This document shows, one piece after another, positions 4,186 through 32,844 of a stretch of DNA of 32,844 nt. Source of the DNA: an uncultured Candidatus Saccharibacteria bacterium. GTDB taxonomy: Bacteria; Patescibacteriota; Minisyncoccia; Phycocordibacterales; UBA9973. Under the pieces are notes generated by a model. It was not told the DNA's origin, searched no databases, and worked only from the letters and a program-made list of their open reading frames with translations. The translations under genes were made by a program, and so were the position numbers. Location of the stretch: the NCBI GenBank assembly GCA_964613525.1, contig CAZTIN010000002.1:1-32844 (forward strand), given 5' to 3'. The stretch's first letter is position 1; every line of letters begins with the position of its first letter.

Positions 4186-4219
4186 CAAAACCCTGCATTT
4201 TATAAAATGCAGGGTTTTG
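4186..4219 (+). terminator. strong hairpin terminator (17-nt perfect inverted arms)
   Basis: CAAAACCCTGCATTTTA (4186-4202) and TAAAATGCAGGGTTTTG (4203-4219) form the arms. The 3' arm supplies the TG of the next promoter. Confidence 0.75.
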
Positions 4220-16454: not shown

Positions 16455-18761
16455 ATGAAATTTAGGAAAATTTTTCTAACTTTAATAATTGCTTCTTTTG
16501 TTTATATTTTACCTAATTTTGCCAGTGCAGAGATTGTTTTACCTTGTTCACGCGGAACAGCACAAATGTGTGGCTTTAATGATGTTTTTACTCTAATCAA
16601 TAATTTGATAAAGTTTTTCCTCAGTTATGTACTACTACCTCTATCTATAATATTAGTAAGTTATGCTGGATGGCTATTTATGACATCTGGGGGCAATGAA
16701 AGTAAGCGCACTCAAGCTAAAGCCATATTTAAAAACTTGCTCATAGGTATAGCAATATTCCTTTTGGCTTGGTCTATAGTTTATTTTGTATTCAAGGCTT
16801 TTGGGGTAAAAGGTAGTAATGGTCTGTCTGATAAAACTGTCGACTGGAAAGTCGACGGTTCTTCTTTACCACAAATTAATACGGGTACTCAGAGCTCTGG
16901 CCAAAATAACAATAGCAGTAATAATTCCAGTAATCAGGTATTAACCAGCTATGCTGCTACTATTACTTACAATGCAGTAGTTCCTAGCAGTACTCGCGCT
17001 ACTGTAACAATAACTCCAAAAGCACCTTATGAAATGGCAATTCGTATGAAATGTATAGATAGGCTTAGTGGAGATACTGCTACTGGCGAAGCCAAGATAG
17101 CTTCGGGTAGTAGCGTGACAACTATTGTAATTGACCTACAAGAAGAGACAGAATATTCTTGCGCTCTTGAGAATATCGAAGGTCAAATTAAAATGAATGA
17201 TATAACAGATTCAGAAATAATGACCCCTAGGGTTTCTCCAGTAACGGGCGATTTTACTTTTTCTGGTGGTAGTTTCGACTCAGACGAAAATACTATAAAT
17301 ATTCGCTACCGTAATGCTGACAAGCTTTACTCTAGTTCTGGATTTCTTTCTTGTTTTGATTCTACTAATTCAAGAAATTTATTTAACATGTCTGGTATTT
17401 TACTAAATAGGGAAAAGGGTAGTGACTTGCGTTATGCTACATATAATCTACCTTCTAATTTTTCTAGTACTCTGGAAGATAATATTAATGTTAGTTGTAG
17501 TTTCTATACTTATACCCTGGTTAATAAAATAATAACTGAAACAGAAAATAAGTTTACAGGTACTATAAAATCAACTAAAAAAATCCAAAGTATTAAAACC
17601 AGATTCCTAGTAACAGAGAAGCAAATAGGTCAGGACAGCGTAACTATTATATTTAATGGGTCTATAAACATAAATCCTAATTTGTCTTTGGCTTGTTATT
17701 CGAATAATTCGAACCATGTTTTTAGAACACGCGCTACTTTTGACCCAACTACAAATTCCAGGCTTTCACAGGCAATGAATCCGTCTTTTAATAAAGATTC
17801 TATTTATGCACCAATTACGATACCGGTAGCATGGTTCGGCTATGGTCTTAGGCCAGGGTCAGTTTACTCTTGTAATTTAGAAGGAGAAACTCTTGAAAAA
17901 GTCTCTGGTTACGAAGATCAAGTAGTTACTAAACATAATCATTCGTTTAGTCTTAGTACTCCTTTAATTCCAGCACCTATTAAATTAGAATCAAAACTCG
18001 ATTACTATGTTTCCATTGGAGTACCAAGAATTGTTTATGTAAACTATCCATATGTAAAACCAGTAAATGTGCTATCAGGCGGGCCTTATTTATCAGAATC
18101 GCAGTTCAGGCAGCCTATACCAGATTCTATTTTTGTACCAGTTACAAATGGGCTTGTTGTAGATAATTCTCGTATGAACATGGTATGTACTTCTATTGTT
18201 GGTCCAGCAGCTGGGACAACCTATAGTACGCTAGTCTCAGTGTCTGAGACTCAGTCTGCTGATACTTTTGGAATTGCTCAGGTGTATGGAGCTAATAATA
18301 ATCTTGGCTCTGGATTCAGTATACCGATAGTCAGGACTCCGCGAGGTGGATTTATGCATTCGTCCGTATATGCTTGTATGCTGGGGTTTACAGTAGGCTC
18401 TGTGCCTCAGATTAGGTCATTTATGGCATCAGTCCCTATTAGTATCGATCCAACTGAAATTGGCCCTATAAACCTATCAGTCGAAAATATAAATGCTGAT
18501 AAAAGTTACGCAAACTTTACTATAGTTGCATCACCTCGTATCGAAAATAGTGTAAAATATACTTGTAGACATCCGTCTGGTAACTATACAGGCGAAGCAT
18601 ACTGGCCGCCGCAAGCTCTGGGTATAAGAATGCCTGTAGCCATTCCTGTTATGAGTAGCTTGCCAGGATTAAAGCCAGCCACAAATTATAGCTGCACATT
18701 AGAAGGTTCCACCTATCAGAAACAAATCGTAGAATATCAGTTTAATATACAAACACCTTAA
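16455..18761 (+). CDS. TrbC/VirB2-like pilin module (aa 1-118) fused to a large extracellular domain of Cys-pair modules
   Basis: Signal peptide (..NFASA/EI), a two-TM hairpin with loop SGGNESKRTQAK, an N/S-rich linker, then five modules each closed by a Cys pair. See findings. Confidence 0.6.
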   Translation: MKFRKIFLTLIIASFVYILPNFASAEIVLPCSRGTAQMCGFNDVFTLINNLIKFFLSYVLLPLSIILVSYAGWLFMTSGGNESKRTQAKAIFKNLLIGIAIFLLAWSIVYFVFKAFGVKGSNGLSDKTVDWKVDGSSLPQINTGTQSSGQNNNSSNNSSNQVLTSYAATITYNAVVPSSTRATVTITPKAPYEMAIRMKCIDRLSGDTATGEAKIASGSSVTTIVIDLQEETEYSCALENIEGQIKMNDITDSEIMTPRVSPVTGDFTFSGGSFDSDENTINIRYRNADKLYSSSGFLSCFDSTNSRNLFNMSGILLNREKGSDLRYATYNLPSNFSSTLEDNINVSCSFYTYTLVNKIITETENKFTGTIKSTKKIQSIKTRFLVTEKQIGQDSVTIIFNGSININPNLSLACYSNNSNHVFRTRATFDPTTNSRLSQAMNPSFNKDSIYAPITIPVAWFGYGLRPGSVYSCNLEGETLEKVSGYEDQVVTKHNHSFSLSTPLIPAPIKLESKLDYYVSIGVPRIVYVNYPYVKPVNVLSGGPYLSESQFRQPIPDSIFVPVTNGLVVDNSRMNMVCTSIVGPAAGTTYSTLVSVSETQSADTFGIAQVYGANNNLGSGFSIPIVRTPRGGFMHSSVYACMLGFTVGSVPQIRSFMASVPISIDPTEIGPINLSVENINADKSYANFTIVASPRIENSVKYTCRHPSGNYTGEAYWPPQALGIRMPVAIPVMSSLPGLKPATNYSCTLEGSTYQKQIVEYQFNIQTP
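16941..18758 (+). repeat. five divergent protein-level modules (about 85-135 aa), each with one Cys pair and three ending in a (P)xxxYSCxLEG-like motif
   Basis: Cys pairs at aa 200/236, 300/348, 414/473, 578/641 and 704/747. The recurring motifs are ETEYSCALEN, PGSVYSCNLEG and PATNYSCTLEG. The DNA itself is not repeated. Confidence 0.55.
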
Positions 18762-19766: not shown

Positions 19767-19801
19767 ATATACATATTAGTATAAATTAATTGTTAATTAT
19801 T

Positions 19802-20200
19802 ATGCGTAAATTTATTGCTCCGGCTCTTGGTTTCTTTTTACCTGTTTTGGCAATGGCACAAAATATAAACGTTGGACCAGCTTATACTGGTAACCAAAAT
19901 GTGTTCACACTGCTTGCTACAGGTCAGAGTCTAATGAACCTATTAATCCGTGTTCTTGTGGGTTTTGCGGTTCTTATGATTATCGTAGGTGTTGTTCAGT
20001 TTATAATAGCTGGTTCAAAAGGTGATTCTGCTGCTTCAGGTAAAGCTAAAAGTACAATACTATACGGTGTATTAGGTCTTTTCGTTATTACAACTATCTG
20101 GGGACTTGTAGGTATCGTGCGTCGTACACTTGGTACTGGTACACCTGGTTCATCTGATGTTGTACTTCCTTGTGTTCCTGGTCAAGACCAGAACTGTTAG
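19802..20200 (+). CDS. TrbC/VirB2-like pilin-family protein (start at ATG 19802, MRKF...)
   Basis: Signal peptide (..VLAMA/QN), a two-TM hairpin with loop AGSKGDSAASGKAK, the motif IVRRTLGTG, and a C-terminal Cys pair CVPGQDQNC. Confidence 0.6.
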   Translation: MRKFIAPALGFFLPVLAMAQNINVGPAYTGNQNVFTLLATGQSLMNLLIRVLVGFAVLMIIVGVVQFIIAGSKGDSAASGKAKSTILYGVLGLFVITTIWGLVGIVRRTLGTGTPGSSDVVLPCVPGQDQNC

Positions 20201-20463: not shown

Positions 20464-20503
20464 ACAAACATAAAAGCCGCTTATAAGCGGCTTTTATGTT
20501 TGT
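20464..20503. terminator. bidirectional terminator, 17-bp perfect stem
   Basis: ACAAACATAAAAGCCGC (20464-20480) pairs with GCGGCTTTTATGTTTGT (20487-20503) around the loop TTATAA. It lies between the last pilin gene (+) and tRNA-Lys (-). Confidence 0.8.
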
Positions 20504-24686: not shown

Positions 24687-27377
24687 ATGCCACCATTTAC
24701 ACACTTTACAACCAAAGCAAAAGAAGTAATTAGGCGCGCTCATGAATTCGTCATAGAGCGTGGTCAAAACCACGTGTCTAGTGTGCATTTACTAGCAGCT
24801 CTGGTAACTTCTGAAGATATAGTAATACTGCCAATATTAGAGAAGCTAGACATAGACACTACTCATCTAGTAGACATAATACTGGAGCACATAGAAATAC
24901 CGGAAAGAGGTAATACTCTTTCACCATCATATCAAATATACCTGACACCTGACCTAGCTCAGGTTATTGAGCATTCAAGTAAAGTCGCTGCATCTCAGAA
25001 GAGCGAATTTGTTGATGTGGAACATTTATTCTTGGCATTATTTGATGTTCAGTCTGAAGCAAAAAGAATACTAGAAAGATTTAAAATCAGTAAAGACTCT
25101 GTCTTTAAAGTCTTAGAAGATGCAAAAACTGAATCTGCGGAACCCGCAGTTTCTAATAAGAAAACTAAGAATCTTGAGAAGTATGCTCGTAATTTAACTG
25201 AACTAGCGCGCAACGATAAACTGGATCCAGTTATCGGCCGTGATACTGAAATAATGCGCATAATGCAAATACTTTCACGCAGGACAAAGAACAACCCAGT
25301 GCTTATTGGTGAAGCTGGAACTGGTAAAACAGCAGTTGTAGAAGGTCTTGCAAATAGAATAGTCAAAGGTGATATCCCTGATACGCTCAAAGATAAAGAA
25401 ATAATATCTTTAGACCTAGGATTACTACTTGCTGGTACAAAATACCGTGGTGAATTCGAAGAAAGACTAAGGGCTATTATGAAAGAAGTTGAAAAGTCTG
25501 ACGGTAAAATAATACTATTCATAGATGAGCTTCATACAATAGTCGGCGCAGGTGCGTCAGAAGGCTCATTAGACGCTTCTAATATGCTTAAGCCTGCTCT
25601 TGCTCGCGGTGAGCTTCGTGCCATTGGTGCAACGACTATTAAAGAGTATCAGAAGCATATTGAAAAAGATCCAGCACTAGCTCGTAGATTCCAACCAGTT
25701 TATGTGGAAGAACCAAGCGTAGAAGATGCTGTGGCAATACTGCGTGGTCTTAAGGATAAATATGAAATATTCCACGGTGTTCATATTACTGATGACGCTA
25801 TACTTTCGGCTGTAAACCTTTCTACTCGTTATATTACTAACAGGTTCTTGCCAGACAAGGCGGTGGACTTAATAGATGAAGCATCGTCTTCTCTTAAGAT
25901 AGCGTTAGAAAATAAACCTAAAGAATTAGAAGATTCACATCGCAGAATAATGCGTCTTGAAATAGAGAGAGAAGCAATTCTAAAAGACGTAAAGAAGAAG
26001 GGTTCCCGCGCTCCGAAAGAAATAAAAGAGCGCCTAGAAGTTATAGAGGAAGAAATAGCAACACAGAAAAACAAAATCAAAGACCTAGAAGTAAGATGGG
26101 CTAACGAAAAAGAAATAGTAATTAGTATTAGGCAAATAAAGAAAGATTTAGAGCTACTCCGCAATGAAGCTGATAATGCACAGCTACGTCAGGACCTGTC
26201 ACGTGCTGCGGAGATTCGTTATGGCGAGATACCGCTACTACGTAAAGAACTGGATTCTAAAATGCAAAAGCTAAAAAGAATGCAAAAGACTCGCCGTATT
26301 CTGAAAGAAGAAATAACAGCTGAAGATATAGCTGAAGTTGTAAGCCGCTGGACTGGTATACCACTAATGCGCATGCTAGAAGAAGAAAAACAAAAGCTGC
26401 TTCGTATGGAAGACGAGCTGAAAAAGCGTGTGGTAGGTCAAGATGAAGCAGTCACAAAGGTTGCAGAAACAGTGAGAAGAAGTCGAGCAGGTATCGCTGA
26501 CCCGAACAAACCAATTGGTTCATTTATATTCCTAGGTCCTACAGGTGTTGGTAAAACAGAGCTTACTAAAGCATTAGCTGAATTCATGTTTAACGACGAG
26601 AAGGCATTAGTTCGTGTAGACATGTCCGAATATATGGAACGCCATAGTGTATCTAAACTGGTTGGCTCACCACCAGGTTACGTGGGGCACGATGATTCAG
26701 GTCAGCTTACCGAAGCTGTACGTCACAGACCTTATTCAGTAGTATTGTTTGACGAAGTTGAAAAGGCTCATCCAGAAGTATTTAATATCTTACTGCAAGT
26801 TCTTGATGAAGGCCGCCTAACAGATGCCAAAGGCCGCATCGTTAATTTCCGTAACACTATAATAATCCTGACATCTAATATTGGTTCACAGTTTATTGAT
26901 AAAATGGAATCTATCGGATTTGGCTCTCACTCCCAGGCTTCGGCTTATAATGATGCTAAAGACAAAGTTATGGACTCTTTAAAGAATCATTTCCGTCCAG
27001 AATTCTTGAACAGGTTAGACGAAGTCGTAGTGTTTGATGTACTATCTCCGGAAACTATCCGTGAAATAGTATCTCTAAGAACTCAAGCTGTAAGAGATAG
27101 GCTCTTAACCAAAGGCATTGATCTTCAAATATCAGAAACTGCTTATGCATATTTAGCTAAAGAAGGTTATGACCCGCACTATGGAGCCCGTCCTTTGAAC
27201 AGACTAATTCAGACCAAGATACTAAACCCAATAGCAACACATCTTATTGCTAACGATATAGTGCCAGGTACTGTCGTAGAAGTAACAGAGAAGAATGGTA
27301 TTCTTGTAGTAGAGCACAAAACTAAAAAACGTGTTAAATCAACAATGGTTGTAAAACCAAAGAAAAAAGCAGCCTAG
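24687..27377 (+). CDS. clpB: ATP-dependent chaperone ClpB
   Basis: Clp N-domain, NBD1 Walker A GEAGTGKT, a long coiled-coil middle domain, NBD2 GPTGVGKT, and sensor motifs. 896 aa. Confidence 0.97.
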
Positions 27378-27388
27378 GCTGCTTTTTT
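27363..27388 (+). terminator. intrinsic terminator overlapping the clpB stop codon
   Basis: AAAAAAGCAGCC TAGG... GGCTGCTTTTTT forms a palindrome followed by a T6 run. Confidence 0.7.
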
Positions 27389-27394
27389 CTATTG

Positions 27395-28959: not shown

Positions 28960-29400
28960 ATGGCAAATTTATATACAGTGGAGTTTTTCGCTGTATATCG
29001 CGGAATAACTCTTAGTCAGGATGATAACAAATACTTTTTCTCGCTATTTTTTAATGACGATGACTCAATAAAAGATGATCGAATCTATTTAGAAAAGAAA
29101 TTGTATAATGATCTTTCCACTATCAAGCTAGGTATGCGCGTATGGCCGGTTATCCTAAGAGCATCTTTCTATTTAGGTAATAAGGTAAACCATACTTTCC
29201 GTCGTAGTCTCAAAAGAGAATCATTCAAAATATTCAGAGCCGCTTATAATAAACTCAGTGTTATTACAGGTAAAGCCGAATATTTAATAAAACCAAATTC
29301 TTCAGACAGGTATATACTTGTTAAAATATATCCTAAAACAAAGCTCAGGCTAATATCTGGCAACTCGACAAGACTAATAACATACGACGATCTAAAGTAA
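28960..29400 (+). CDS. hypothetical protein
   Basis: 146-aa ORF with its own promoter and terminator. No family recognised. Confidence 0.5.
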   Translation: MANLYTVEFFAVYRGITLSQDDNKYFFSLFFNDDDSIKDDRIYLEKKLYNDLSTIKLGMRVWPVILRASFYLGNKVNHTFRRSLKRESFKIFRAAYNKLSVITGKAEYLIKPNSSDRYILVKIYPKTKLRLISGNSTRLITYDDLK

Positions 29401-29521: not shown

Positions 29522-30439
29522 TTAACCCAAAAGAAAATCCAAGGCTAAATCATCAGCTTCTTTTTGGGATTTGTTTTTATTGCTCATATCAAGCCATGTA
29601 ATATTCTTATTTTTCTTAAACCAGGTTAGCTGACGCTTGGCATAATCAAGAGTTTCTTTGTTTATGGAATTAGTACATTCTTCGTTATTTATTTTACCTT
29701 GCGCTAGTAATGCTAGATATTTATATTCCAAGCCTAATTTTTCCAGCTTACTATAACTAACACCAGAATCTTTTATCTTCATTATCTCTTTTAGCATAAT
29801 TTGAAGACCTCTTTTATTTGTCCTGTCTTTGATGTGTTCTTTGATTGTTTCATTAGGTAGCTTTAGCCCAATAAATAGTGTTTCATATTTTAATTTTGGT
29901 TCTACTAATTTTGGCACTGTACCTAACGCTGCTATTATCTCTAGCGCTCTTATTAGCCTGACTTTATTATGTCTATCTATGTTTTGAGCACGTTCTTTGT
30001 CTAAATTCTCTAGTTTTGTAAAAAGCTCATTAGCTGAGTATTTCTCTAATTCTTTGCGCAATTTTGCATTTGGTTTTACTTCTGGAATTGTTTTACTAAA
30101 AACTAAATTATCTATATATAAACCTGTACCACCACATATGATAGGTATTATGTTTTTACTATGCAGATCTTTTATTATTTTAGTCGCTTCTTTTTTGTAC
30201 CGAGCTACAGAATAATTAGTTTTATAATTTACAACTGAAATCATGTGGTGTTTAATACCCTGCATTTCCTTTTTTGTTATCTTAGCGCTAATTGTGTCTC
30301 CATCTATATAAACTTGTCTTGAGTCAGCTGAAATTATTTCGGATTTTATTCCGTTTTGCTTTAGATAGATAGACAAAGCTACCGACAGGTCACTTTTGCC
30401 GGTAGCTGTTTGTCCGCAAATAACAATGCATTTGTTCAT
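29522..30439 (-). CDS. miaA: tRNA dimethylallyltransferase
   Basis: P-loop ICGQTATGKS and the IPPT family core (GGTGLYI...). The ATG abuts the murA stop codon with no spacer. Confidence 0.92.
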   Translation of the reverse strand: MNKCIVICGQTATGKSDLSVALSIYLKQNGIKSEIISADSRQVYIDGDTISAKITKKEMQGIKHHMISVVNYKTNYSVARYKKEATKIIKDLHSKNIIPIICGGTGLYIDNLVFSKTIPEVKPNAKLRKELEKYSANELFTKLENLDKERAQNIDRHNKVRLIRALEIIAALGTVPKLVEPKLKYETLFIGLKLPNETIKEHIKDRTNKRGLQIMLKEIMKIKDSGVSYSKLEKLGLEYKYLALLAQGKINNEECTNSINKETLDYAKRQLTWFKKNKNITWLDMSNKNKSQKEADDLALDFLLG

Positions 30440-31966
30440 TTAGCCTACACTTTTGATTTGTCTTACATCAGCTCCTAGGTCGCTAAGTCTTTCTATTAGA
30501 CCTTCGTACCCACGGTTAATAGCATAGACATTACGCAGTATTGATTTACCTTCGGCTGCTAGCATGGCAATAAGTATAATAGTTGCTGGGCGCAGTGCTG
30601 GTGGGCAGACTATCTGCGCTCCACGTAAATCTGTTCCTCCGTCTACGTATACACGGTGTGGGTCGGCAAGCATTACTTTTGCTCCTAGGCGGTTTAGTTC
30701 TGTAAAATATATTGCTCGGTTTTCCCATGTCCAGTCGTGTACTAGTGTGGTACCGTCCGCTACAGCAGCTATCGGCACAAAGAAAGGCAAGTTGTCATTA
30801 TTTATACCAGGGAATGGTAATGCATGTATTTTATCAGGTAGAGCTTTAAGCTTACTTTCTTTAATTGTTATATCAACTAGTTCAACATGACCATTTTTAC
30901 CTTTGTATGATTTACTAACAGTAAATTTTAATCCCATTTTTTCTAGTTTTAGTAGTTCAAGTCTTAGAAATTCAATAGGGCATCGTTTAATAGTAATATT
31001 ACTATTTGTTACGATTCCAGCAGCTAGGAAAAACATTGTTTCTATCGGGTCTTCACTGTTGTACCATTCTAGCTCTTCGTCTATTTCTTCTATACCACTA
31101 ACTTCTAGGGTAGTCGAACCGATCCCATTTATCTTTACACCTAGTCTTTCTAAGAAGAAGCACACATCTTGTACTTGGTAGTTAGGCGGAGCAAAACGAA
31201 TTATGGTTTTGCCAGGAGTCAGAGCCGCAGTCATTAACGCGTTTACTGCTGCCATATCGGACGCTTCGTATAGTACTATGTCGGCAGGTTTTATATTAGT
31301 ATTTTTAACTAGGTAATGCTTTGCTTCTGATTTTATTTTTATTCCAAATTTTTCCAGTGCAAACCTATGAGCTGAAATAGTTCTTTCACCCATTTTACAC
31401 CCACCTGGGTTAGGTAGGCGGAATTCTTTTATTCTATGTGCTAGTGGTGGAATCAAATACAAATTAACACGAATTCTACCAGCAATCGCTTCGTCTATAT
31501 TATCTATATCAAATTCATCCGGAGGAGTTATTTTAAGACTATGTTCTTCTACCCAATTAGTTTTGATACCAATACTTTCAAAAACTTCTATAAAACGAAA
31601 AACTTCTTCTATTCTTGGGACGCCATGAATAGTAGTTGCTGATTTATTTAAAAGTGATGCCGCCATCAGAGCCAAAGCTCCATTTTTAGAATAATGAGTT
31701 GTTACTTCGCCGGATAATTTCTTGCCGCCGACTATTTCAAAATCGTCAACTCTTGGAGCAAGAGTAATAAGCCTCTCGCCAAGAGTGTCGCCAATTCTTT
31801 CTAATTCTTTAGTGGTAAAATTTTGGTTACCTTTTTCCATTCTGGCTACTGCTGACTGAGATGTATCCAGCATTTTGGCAAAAGATGACTGGGTTAGGCC
31901 TTCACGTTCGCGGATAGTGCGTATAAGATAGCCTATATAATTTTGTAATGACTTTTTCTTTCCCAT
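30440..31966 (-). CDS. murA: UDP-N-acetylglucosamine 1-carboxyvinyltransferase with an N-terminal XRE-type HTH domain (fusion)
   Basis: aa 8-70 (IGYLIRTIREREGLTQSSFAKMLDTSQSAVARMEKGNQNFTTKELERIGDTLG) is a classic HTH_3 pattern. From about aa 73 the MurA pattern begins: FEIVGGKKLSGEVT..YSKNGALALMAASLL and the catalytic Cys loop PGGCKMGERTISAH. Confidence 0.88.
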   Translation of the reverse strand: MGKKKSLQNYIGYLIRTIREREGLTQSSFAKMLDTSQSAVARMEKGNQNFTTKELERIGDTLGERLITLAPRVDDFEIVGGKKLSGEVTTHYSKNGALALMAASLLNKSATTIHGVPRIEEVFRFIEVFESIGIKTNWVEEHSLKITPPDEFDIDNIDEAIAGRIRVNLYLIPPLAHRIKEFRLPNPGGCKMGERTISAHRFALEKFGIKIKSEAKHYLVKNTNIKPADIVLYEASDMAAVNALMTAALTPGKTIIRFAPPNYQVQDVCFFLERLGVKINGIGSTTLEVSGIEEIDEELEWYNSEDPIETMFFLAAGIVTNSNITIKRCPIEFLRLELLKLEKMGLKFTVSKSYKGKNGHVELVDITIKESKLKALPDKIHALPFPGINNDNLPFFVPIAAVADGTTLVHDWTWENRAIYFTELNRLGAKVMLADPHRVYVDGGTDLRGAQIVCPPALRPATIILIAMLAAEGKSILRNVYAINRGYEGLIERLSDLGADVRQIKSVG

Positions 31967-31972
31967 GGTAAC

Positions 31973-31994
31973 AATATATCATATATGATATATT
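31973..31994. promoter_or_regulatory. perfect 22-bp palindrome AATATATCATATATGATATATT, equal to two divergent TGaTATATT extended -10 elements and a candidate operator
   Basis: The plus strand has TGATATATT at 31986-31994, then a 6-nt gap and ATG 32001 (murB). The minus strand has TGATATATT at 31981-31973, then a 6-nt gap and ATG 31966 (murA). Confidence 0.6.
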
Positions 31995-32000
31995 ATGTAT

Positions 32001-32844
32001 ATGGATTTACACAGTATGGTGATAAACTTAAAGAGCCTGAATACGTTCGGTATTGAAGCCCGGGCGCGTGTTTTTGTGATTAAAAACACGGCTAATTTAG
32101 TAGATTATATGTCTAGTAATTCTAATAATAACTATTTTGTTTTAGGTGGCGGGTCTAATATTATCCTAGATGAAAGTATTAAAGAGAGGGATATTCTAAA
32201 GATAGAAATAAAAGGTAAAGATATAGTTGAAAAAGATGACAGTAGTGCATTTGTGCGTATAGGAGCAGGGGAAAATTGGGATGATGTAGTAGCCTGGAGT
32301 ATAGACCAGGGTCTATCTGGAATAGAAGCATTATCTGCTATACCAGGTAGTGCTGGTGCTACTCCAGTGCAAAATGTAGGAGCCTATGGAACAGAAATAA
32401 AAGACGTTCTTGTTTCGGTAACTGTATTCGATACAAAAGAAAATAAAATTAAAACAATTTATAATAAAGACTGTGAATTTACCTATAGGAATAGTTTATT
32501 CAAGTCTAAAGAAAAAGGACGATATATCATAACTGATATTTTATTAAAACTATCAATGGGTTCCGCTACTATGCCAGACTACCCAGCGGTAAGAAAATAT
32601 TTTGCAGATATAGGTATTACTAGTCCGACAGCTTTGGAAATACGTAACGCTATAACTGAAATTAGGTGGTCTAAATTACCTCATCCGGAAGAGTTAGGTA
32701 ACTGCGGTTCATTCTTTGAAAACCCAATAGTTCCAAACGAAGTTGCAAATAAAATAAAAGAACAATTTCCTGAAATAACTTTGTATAAAATAGACGACAA
32801 TCATTCTAAAATCCCAGCAGGGTTCCTTCTGGAGAAGGCGGGAC
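32001..32844 (+). CDS. murB: UDP-N-acetylenolpyruvoylglucosamine reductase, 3' partial (runs off the window)
   Basis: Hand translation gives MDLHSMVINLKSLNTFGIEA...VLGGGSNIIL...AIPGSAGATPVQNVGAYG...CGSFFENP...KIPAGFLLEKAG. Alternative in-frame starts lie at 31995 and 32016. Confidence 0.85.
   Translation, partial: MDLHSMVINLKSLNTFGIEARARVFVIKNTANLVDYMSSNSNNNYFVLGGGSNIILDESIKERDILKIEIKGKDIVEKDDSSAFVRIGAGENWDDVVAWSIDQGLSGIEALSAIPGSAGATPVQNVGAYGTEIKDVLVSVTVFDTKENKIKTIYNKDCEFTYRNSLFKSKEKGRYIITDILLKLSMGSATMPDYPAVRKYFADIGITSPTALEIRNAITEIRWSKLPHPEELGNCGSFFENPIVPNEVANKIKEQFPEITLYKIDDNHSKIPAGFLLEKAG

Follow-up and report, generated by a model that had tools for sequence, protein, structure and literature searches.

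The murA/murB spacer contains a perfect palindrome

The DNA analyzed here is a 32,844-nt stretch (hereafter, the window) of contig CAZTIN010000002.1, from an uncultured bacterium of the Patescibacteriota. At its right-hand end, divergently oriented homologs of the peptidoglycan genes murA and murB are separated by a spacer of 34 nt (31967-32000), and it is this spacer, together with the unusual MurA protein encoded next to it, that concerns us. The murA start codon is the CAT at 31964-31966, the first codon of a minus-strand open reading frame (ORF) at 30440-31966. On the plus strand, murB (UDP-N-acetylenolpyruvoylglucosamine reductase; Pfam FAD_binding_4 and MurB_C) is represented by its 5' part, from 32001 to 32844, and continues past the window. 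Two alternative in-frame ATGs for murB, at 31995 and 32016, had been omitted from the preliminary description of this DNA, which placed the start at 32001. Because the relatives L001 and L002 (loci of relatives are numbered with an L throughout) retain only the equivalent of the ATG at 32001, we favor that start, as originally assigned.

Within the spacer, we found that AATATATCATATATGATATATT at 31973-31994 is its own reverse complement, a perfect 22-bp palindrome; a repeat finder returned arms of 11 nt with 100% complementarity and a gap of 0 nt. On the plus strand, the right arm reads TGATATATT at 31986-31994, followed by ATGTAT (6 nt) and the murB ATG. On the minus strand, the left arm reads TGATATATT at 31981-31973, followed by GTTACC (6 nt) and the murA ATG. 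The two TGATATATT elements are separated by 4 bp (TATA, 31982-31985), and on both strands the element has TGn directly 5' of a TAnnnT hexamer, which is the arrangement of an extended -10. Reading the sequence thus reproduces exactly both the palindrome and the spacing of its arms as they were first described: on each side an extended -10, then 6 nt, then ATG, with 4 bp between the elements. A promoter consensus scan also predicted the murA element (31973-31981, minus strand), with TG ahead of the -10 hexamer, a -35-like TATACA at 32001-31996 and a 17-nt spacer between the two; the murB element (31986-31994, plus strand) is predicted from the sequence, with 6 nt between it and the ATG.

Inside the palindrome lies the 18-bp core of a putative operator, TATATCA-TATA-TGATATA (31975-31992), for which the family consensus described below is TATATCA-YATR-TGATATA. 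Its left half-site, TATATCA (31975-31981), reads on the minus strand as the TGATATA of the predicted murA extended -10, and its right half-site, TGATATA (31986-31992), is the plus-strand part of the predicted murB extended -10. The half-site centers are 11 bp apart, so both half-sites lie on the same face of the DNA. When the whole 32.8-kb window was shuffled 500 times (Markov-1), 10 of the shuffles contained a perfect palindrome of at least 22 bp, and a core of the form TATATCA-N4-TGATATA with at most one mismatch is expected 0.02 times per window. Because alternating AT makes self-complementarity cheap, such single-sequence statistics are only moderately strong; the decisive evidence for the palindrome is its conservation. 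The only other near-match to the core in the window, TATATCATAACTGATATT at 32523-32540, lies within murB and carries one mismatch. At 0.02 per window this match is unexpected by chance, yet relatives keep only its Tyr-Ile-Ile codons; it may serve as an auxiliary site or be coincidental.

The adjacent murA gene encodes a helix-turn-helix protein fused to MurA

The minus-strand gene (30440-31966) encodes a 508-residue fusion of an XRE-type helix-turn-helix (HTH) domain to UDP-N-acetylglucosamine 1-carboxyvinyltransferase, as assigned with Pfam and NCBIfam; we refer to the product as HTH-MurA. In Pfam, HTH_3 (PF01381) matched residues 15-65 with 36.3 bits against a cut-off of 23, HTH_31 passed too, and EPSP_synthase (PF00275), the MurA domain, matched residues 80-494 with 155 bits. 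The protein passed the NCBIfam MurA subfamily model NF006873 (316.8 against a cut-off of 297) and did not reach the stricter MurA equivalog TIGR01072 (304.7 against 392.7). Together with Pfam, an AlphaFold2 monomer model with a mean predicted local distance difference test score (pLDDT) of 86.2, and block pLDDT values of about 73-88 across the HTH helices, places the HTH domain at residues 7-62 (31781-31948, minus strand), with helices at 7-21, 26-33, 37-44 and 52-62. Helix 2, the turn and helix 3, the recognition helix, are arranged in a bundle, and the usual fifth helix is not predicted. A low-confidence linker of 11 residues (63-73) connects this domain to a standard MurA body, whose catalytic domain spans residues 74-504 (30455-31747, minus strand) by alignment and NCBIfam.

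Both parts of the protein are under evident constraint. In an alignment of 27 fusions (sample A1), residues T35, S36, Q37, A39, R42, E44 and G46 of the recognition-helix motif T35-S-Q-S-A-V-A-R-M-E-K-G46 (31829-31864, minus strand) are invariant. So are the catalytic-loop C190 (in GGCKMGxR) and K94, R195, D391 and R459, a set that we take to be equivalent to E. coli Cys115, Lys22, Arg120, Asp305 and Arg397. Because the catalytic and recognition-helix residues are invariant or nearly so, the MurA part looks active and the HTH strongly constrained; the alignment thus points to an enzyme that is apparently catalytically intact. The closest HTH sequences with solved structures are those of DNA-binding repressors, namely SaPI Stl ('Orf20') and the restriction-modification controller protein C.Esp1396I.

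The fusion is widespread. A homolog search returned thousands of MurA relatives; all of the best 120, which reach down to 59% identity, carry an HTH-family domain together with PF00275, and in 119 of them the HTH domain is PF01381 itself. Carriers named among these 120 matches are Nomurabacteria, Zambryskibacteria, Magasanikbacteria, Parcubacteria and Patescibacteria, and the databases name the fusions either plainly as MurA or as 'helix-turn-helix domain-containing protein'.

The palindrome is conserved ahead of HTH-murA with or without a divergent murB

We fetched 80 genomic loci of relatives, one genome per species, whose proteins are 55-90% identical to that of the window, and inspected the sequence ahead of every HTH-murA start; 78 loci were usable. 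They come from metagenome-assembled genomes of Nomurabacteria, Paceibacteria, Zambryskibacteria, Uhrbacteria, Kaiserbacteria, Campbellbacteria and Jorgensenbacteria. Directly 5' of HTH-murA, the core TATATCA-N4-TGATATA was present in 77 of the 78 loci with at least 12 of its 14 specified bases: all 14 matched in 56 loci, 13 in 15 loci and 12 in 6 loci. The exact motif occurred as a single copy in each of 55 loci, always at the site 5' of HTH-murA and nowhere else in 473 kb. Conservation amounted to 1.89 bits per position in the left arm, 1.51 in the center and 1.84 in the right arm, against 0.27-0.29 in the 14-nt flanks. The central YATR is itself symmetric, and both it and the TCA/TGA of the arms are near-invariant. 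In the window and in L001-L005 (77-90% protein identity), all 22 bp are identical and other spacer bases vary. The sole usable locus lacking the palindrome is L051, from a Kaiserbacteria genome. The preliminary description had tied its proposal to conservation of the palindrome where the fusion is conserved, and with the core in 77 of 78 loci this is what we found.

That description had left two explanations for the symmetry: an operator superimposed on two promoters, or the promoters alone. The left arm distinguishes between them. In the 38 loci with a divergent murB within 130 nt, it carries 1.92 bits per position, and in the 39 loci without one it carries 1.87. Thirteen loci have a co-directional upstream neighbor and no divergent gene. 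In seven of these (L007, L009, L021, L022, L023, L054 and L071) the neighbor is a long ORF that ends 18-46 nt before the core, and in six (L016, L024, L031, L065, L072 and L073) it is a tRNA gene. TATATCA is exact in 10 of the 13 and one base off in the remaining 3, although in this setting it occupies about -26 to -20 of the predicted murA promoter, a spacer region without a known promoter role. Because the left arm is kept equally well without a divergent gene, two promoters alone cannot explain the symmetry. A comparison of spacers also indicated that the symmetry extends beyond what two -10 elements need, given the near-invariant TCA/TGA and YATR and the persistence of the left arm where divergent murB is absent.

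The recognition helix covaries with the half-site

Residue 36 of HTH-MurA, the second residue of the recognition-helix motif T-S-Q-S, covaries with base 5 of the half-site: serine is paired with T, alanine or lysine with A, and threonine with G. All 56 canonical sites accompany a T-S-Q-[S/P] helix. L038 and L068, in which the half-sites are TATAACA/TGTTATA, have TAQS, as does L053, which carries one TATAACA arm; L029, with TATAGCA/TGCTATA, has TTQS. The homolog P0016 is the only one of the 120 listed with TKQS; its site was predicted from the protein, and TATAACATATATGTTATA was found 5' of the gene (L201). Finally, a metagenome scan for TATA[AG]CA-YATR-TG[CT]TATA yielded two further true fusions, L152 and L162, both combining TATAGCA with TTQS. 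The variant loci fall in separate clades, and their nearest neighbors (L030/L066, L015, L001-L005 and L063) are canonical at base 5; the coupled changes therefore represent at least 5 independent events. Together, these data make S36, with base 5 of the half-site, a candidate specificity determinant. No clean relation to helix changes emerged for a right-arm variant, TGAGATA: A39S/A41P accompanies it in 8 of 13 such loci, all of a single clade.

L051 serves as a natural negative control. In its helix, TSVSVVNKMEAG, the otherwise invariant Q37 and R42 have been lost, together with the palindrome. About 25 nt ahead of its start, L051 has an inverted repeat of another sequence, TGTTAAGGAAT...ATTCTTAACA (L051:1300-1358), and the locus may represent a switch of specificity. 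Conservation and helix covariation together argue that the operator reading is needed, and that the promoters-only alternative of the preliminary description falls short.

Promoter spacing is conserved and predicts leaderless transcripts

Among the 77 loci with the core, it mostly lies 3-20 nt ahead of the murA start, overlapping the predicted promoter of that gene. Measured from the core, the murA ATG is 8 nt away in 21 loci and 11 nt away in 14, with most of the remaining loci at 9-13 nt. Of 62 loci, 40 have a best -10 hexamer that stops 6 nt (27 loci) or 7 nt (13 loci) short of the murA ATG, and TG is found at -15/-14 in 35 of the 62. Divergent murB is a frequent neighbor of HTH-murA; among 45 divergent loci, its ATG follows the core at 8 nt in 20 and at 9-11 nt in another 10, a typical arrangement being TGATATAAT followed by TGCAAT and ATG. 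The spacing between -10 and ATG matches expectation if the A of the ATG is +1, and we infer that murA and murB have leaderless starts. As anatomy, the mirror-image leaderless promoters originally proposed are well supported by the conservation of spacing on both sides. The geometry also makes it reasonable to expect that two polymerases could not bind both promoters at once. L017, L049, L063 and L074 have extra DNA between the operator and HTH-murA, and in L049 this insert contains a further perfect palindrome, GGAAATGTAAACATTTCC, directly ahead of the ATG.

Leaderless initiation may be the habit of this genome. Within 18 nt of the start, a Shine-Dalgarno motif is missing from all 34 long ORFs of the window, and many (for example those at 1108, 1946, 8876, 22906 and 27554) are preceded by TGnTAnAAT or TAnAAT, then 6-8 nt, then ATG. 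The apparent absence of the Shine-Dalgarno motif from these ORFs, together with their promoter-to-ATG spacing, suggests that leaderless starts are the norm here, beyond murA and murB. A literature search for leaderless or Shine-Dalgarno usage in Patescibacteria found nothing.

Related sites accompany murC and a wider family of XRE genes

In five relatives, a second operator-like site lies over the -10 of murC (L015:564-581, L029:480-497, L033:1104-1121, L035:408-425 and L053:560-577). The site reads TGAGATAAT, followed by 8 nt and ATG, and the divergent gene opposite has a GGAGG ribosome-binding site. In L029 (G), L053 (A) and L035 (T), base 5 of the murC site agrees with the HTH residue encoded in that genome. 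These observations suggest a murA-murB-murC regulon in some lineages. A separate site, TATAGCGTATATGATATA (12 of 14 bases), is common to the relatives L042 and L056, where it lies ahead of the ATG of a long plus-strand gene (L042:5845-5862, 10 nt; L056:6278-6295, 11 nt); it may mark a further regulon member or be just a promoter.

Variant palindromes were also collected from 120 metagenome loci (L081-L200), in 72 of which a small XRE or antitoxin-like gene of the same HTH family lies within 1.2 kb. None of the encoded proteins has TSQS; threonine at residue 36 occurs only with G sites, and arginine almost only with A. The presence of XRE genes beside variant palindromes points to a family of operator-binding HTH proteins with a half-site that resembles an extended -10, and the HTH of MurA may derive from this large family. 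Two perfect palindromes, TATAACATATATGTTATA and TATAGCATATATGCTATA, recur widely across metagenome contigs (e.g., L103, L105, L120, L179 and L184). The adjacent XRE proteins are antitoxin-like and about 90 residues long, some of their genes follow a short first ORF that is possibly a toxin gene, and TTGACn, a -35, usually lies directly upstream of the metagenome variants.

A proposed autoregulatory operator over two promoters

From these results, we consider it likely that the spacer contains one autoregulatory operator, recognized by the fused HTH and laid over two predicted back-to-back, leaderless promoters of the extended -10 type. HTH-MurA would bind the palindrome physically, and would do so as a dimer that sets one recognition helix on each half-site of the 18-bp core. 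The same bases would supply the two extended -10 elements, one for leaderless murA (with miaA, described below) leftward and the other for murB rightward. With the predicted starts 35 bp apart, the operator would span about -26 to -9 of both promoters. Because the operator overlaps the -10 elements, we infer repression rather than activation: once bound, the dimer would occlude both -10 elements and jointly repress murA, probably with miaA, and murB. The outcome would be negative autoregulation of the first committed enzyme of peptidoglycan synthesis and co-regulation of the second, and the third enzyme, MurC, would come under the same control in those lineages whose murC carries its own operator copy.

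Several observations weigh against this proposal. MurA enzymes are usually described as monomers, and ahead of the MurA body the AlphaFold2 model shows only the four HTH helices and a flexible linker. The covariation is based on 7 variant fusion loci and has exceptions: one arm is altered in L031 and L045 and the helix is canonical, the helix of L015 is canonical, yet the murC site has a C-variant arm, and in the wider HTH family lysine at residue 36 accompanies A as well as G half-sites. In L017, L049, L063 and L074, 109-173 nt separate the operator from the start chosen for murA. The starts of relatives were set by alignment and the nearest ATG, a procedure that could sharpen the spacing distributions. 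Lastly, a search of public sequencing runs for this sequence returned only DNA metagenomes and no RNA runs.

Alternatively, the symmetry could be the by-product of two mirror-image extended -10 promoters read by RNA polymerase only. Each arm is indeed a good TGnTATAnT followed by 6 nt and ATG, and the spacing is kept on both sides in loci with divergent murB. We nevertheless regard this explanation as very unlikely, the co-directional loci having gone most of the way to refuting it: the left arm is just as conserved in loci without a divergent murB inside 130 nt, the near-invariant TCA/TGA and central YATR exceed the requirements of an extended -10, and both arms change symmetrically, in step with an HTH residue. 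More improbable still, to us, is a hairpin or cruciform, in which the palindrome would serve as a terminator, as an RNA element or, like dif, in recombination. The arms do change in a compensatory way, as those of a stem would, and some copies of the site come after a co-directional gene. Against this, the RNA fold is weak (-6.1 kcal/mol, z = -0.92, equaled by 35 of 200 shuffles), the palindrome would lie outside the transcripts given the predicted starts, the real terminators of the window appear to be GC-rich palindromes of 30-40 bp, and covariation with a protein residue would go unexplained. At the palindrome itself, a scan for terminator-like sites and a search for Rfam matches both came back empty. 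A dif or other recombination site was rejected, as the element stays with a single gene where synteny changes and its sequence covaries with the HTH that this gene encodes.

An operator that is real but bound by a separate, free-standing XRE regulator, with the HTH of MurA serving in, for example, protein-protein contact, is improbable in our judgment, if less so than the two preceding alternatives. Small XRE proteins with very similar recognition helices adjoin similar palindromes in many contigs, and HTH_3 domains can be protein-interaction modules, as in the contact of RodZ with MreB. In 77 of 78 loci, however, the site accompanies the fusion gene itself, whatever the neighbors; it is the fused helix whose changes go with those of the site, in at least 5 clades; and L051 lost the site together with invariant residues of the fused helix. 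All three observations favor HTH-MurA itself as the binding protein.

Beyond autoregulation by HTH-MurA, one might speculate that the MurA domain tunes DNA binding through its ligand or its conformational state, open or closed (UDP-N-acetylglucosamine, phosphoenolpyruvate or UDP-N-acetylmuramic acid [UDP-MurNAc]), in the manner of a trigger enzyme. An enzyme that senses metabolites while acting on a joint operator and double leaderless promoter would provide one-protein feedback over murA, murB and, in some lineages, murC. In such a scheme, TGATATA would have evolved to mimic an extended -10, so that repressor competes with sigma factor for the same bases, a design apparently shared with a large family of XRE antitoxins. 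We offer this extended version only tentatively and think it rather doubtful as a whole.

Comparison with known enzyme-regulators

The proposed circuit has analogs among enzymes that double as regulators. BirA of E. coli is an enzyme with an N-terminal DNA-binding domain, being both biotin protein ligase and repressor of the bio operon, and its dimer occupies a single palindromic operator (bioO) over the divergent, overlapping promoters of bioA and bioBFCD. BirA differs in its winged HTH, in its 40-bp operator, in leaving its own gene unregulated and in a dimerization that is driven by biotinyl-5'-AMP, whereas HTH-MurA has an XRE HTH and its own gene is among the two proposed targets. PutA, a trigger enzyme that likewise binds DNA through an N-terminal domain and controls its own expression, is a repressor of both putA and the divergent neighbor (putA-putP). 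It acts with a ribbon-helix-helix domain at several GTTGCA sites over an intergenic region of about 420 bp, in contrast to the single 18-bp site in the 34-nt spacer here, and it is a catabolic enzyme with a redox-dependent membrane-binding switch. The domains of HTH-MurA are HTH_3 and EPSP_synthase rather than the winged HTH and biotin protein ligase of BirA; because the domains differ, HTH-MurA is no member of the BirA or PutA families and is an analog in its proposed working only.

In its DNA-binding module, HTH-MurA resembles XRE repressors and antitoxins (434 repressor/Cro, C.Esp1396I, SaPI Stl and HigA-like proteins), which share the HTH_3 fold and a helix of the T-x-Q-S type and use a palindromic operator over the regulator's own promoter. 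Free-standing XRE relatives of the fused domain adjoin TATA[A/G]CA-YATR-TG[T/C]TATA sites. These proteins are small dedicated regulators, whereas here the HTH is joined through the 11-residue linker to a full-length MurA. Known controls of MurA, namely feedback inhibition by UDP-MurNAc in Enterobacteria and ClpCP/ReoM-dependent proteolysis in Bacillus and Listeria, act at the same point, the first committed step toward peptidoglycan precursors, but do so post-translationally.

We found no account in the searchable literature of the HTH-MurA fusion, of its operator, or of transcriptional self-control by a DNA-binding domain of MurA. MurA is an antibiotic target and catalyzes the first committed step of wall synthesis. 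Patescibacteria are mostly uncultured, with tiny genomes and few regulators, and to our knowledge almost nothing is known of gene regulation in this group, the candidate phyla radiation. From sequence, the present analysis delineates a testable circuit, with a putative DNA-binding domain, an 18-bp site, a candidate contact between S36 and base 5, and targets, that is conserved across much of the phylum. If the proposal is correct, MurA would join a short list of enzyme-regulators that includes BirA, PutA and NadR. The economy would be considerable: 34 nt are predicted to hold two promoters, two transcription starts that double as start codons, and one operator.

Other features of the window

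Downstream of HTH-murA on the minus strand, miaA (IPP transferase; 29522-30439) begins with the base directly after the murA stop. Because it abuts that stop, miaA probably shares the murA transcript and thus the same control; the order of murA and the transferase gene recurs in L201. The ORF at 28960-29400 (146 residues) has no match in Pfam.

Three further perfect palindromes, at 20464-20503 (40 bp), 4186-4219 (34 bp) and 27361-27390 (30 bp), have GC-rich stems flanked by A/T runs and look like bidirectional intrinsic terminators. The 40-bp and 30-bp palindromes are located directly ahead of tRNA genes on the opposite strand, with the 30-bp palindrome also overlapping the clpB stop. Elsewhere in the window, two ORFs (16455-18761 and 19790-20200) contain a T4SS_pilin domain, which is typical of the type IV secretion loci of Patescibacteria.

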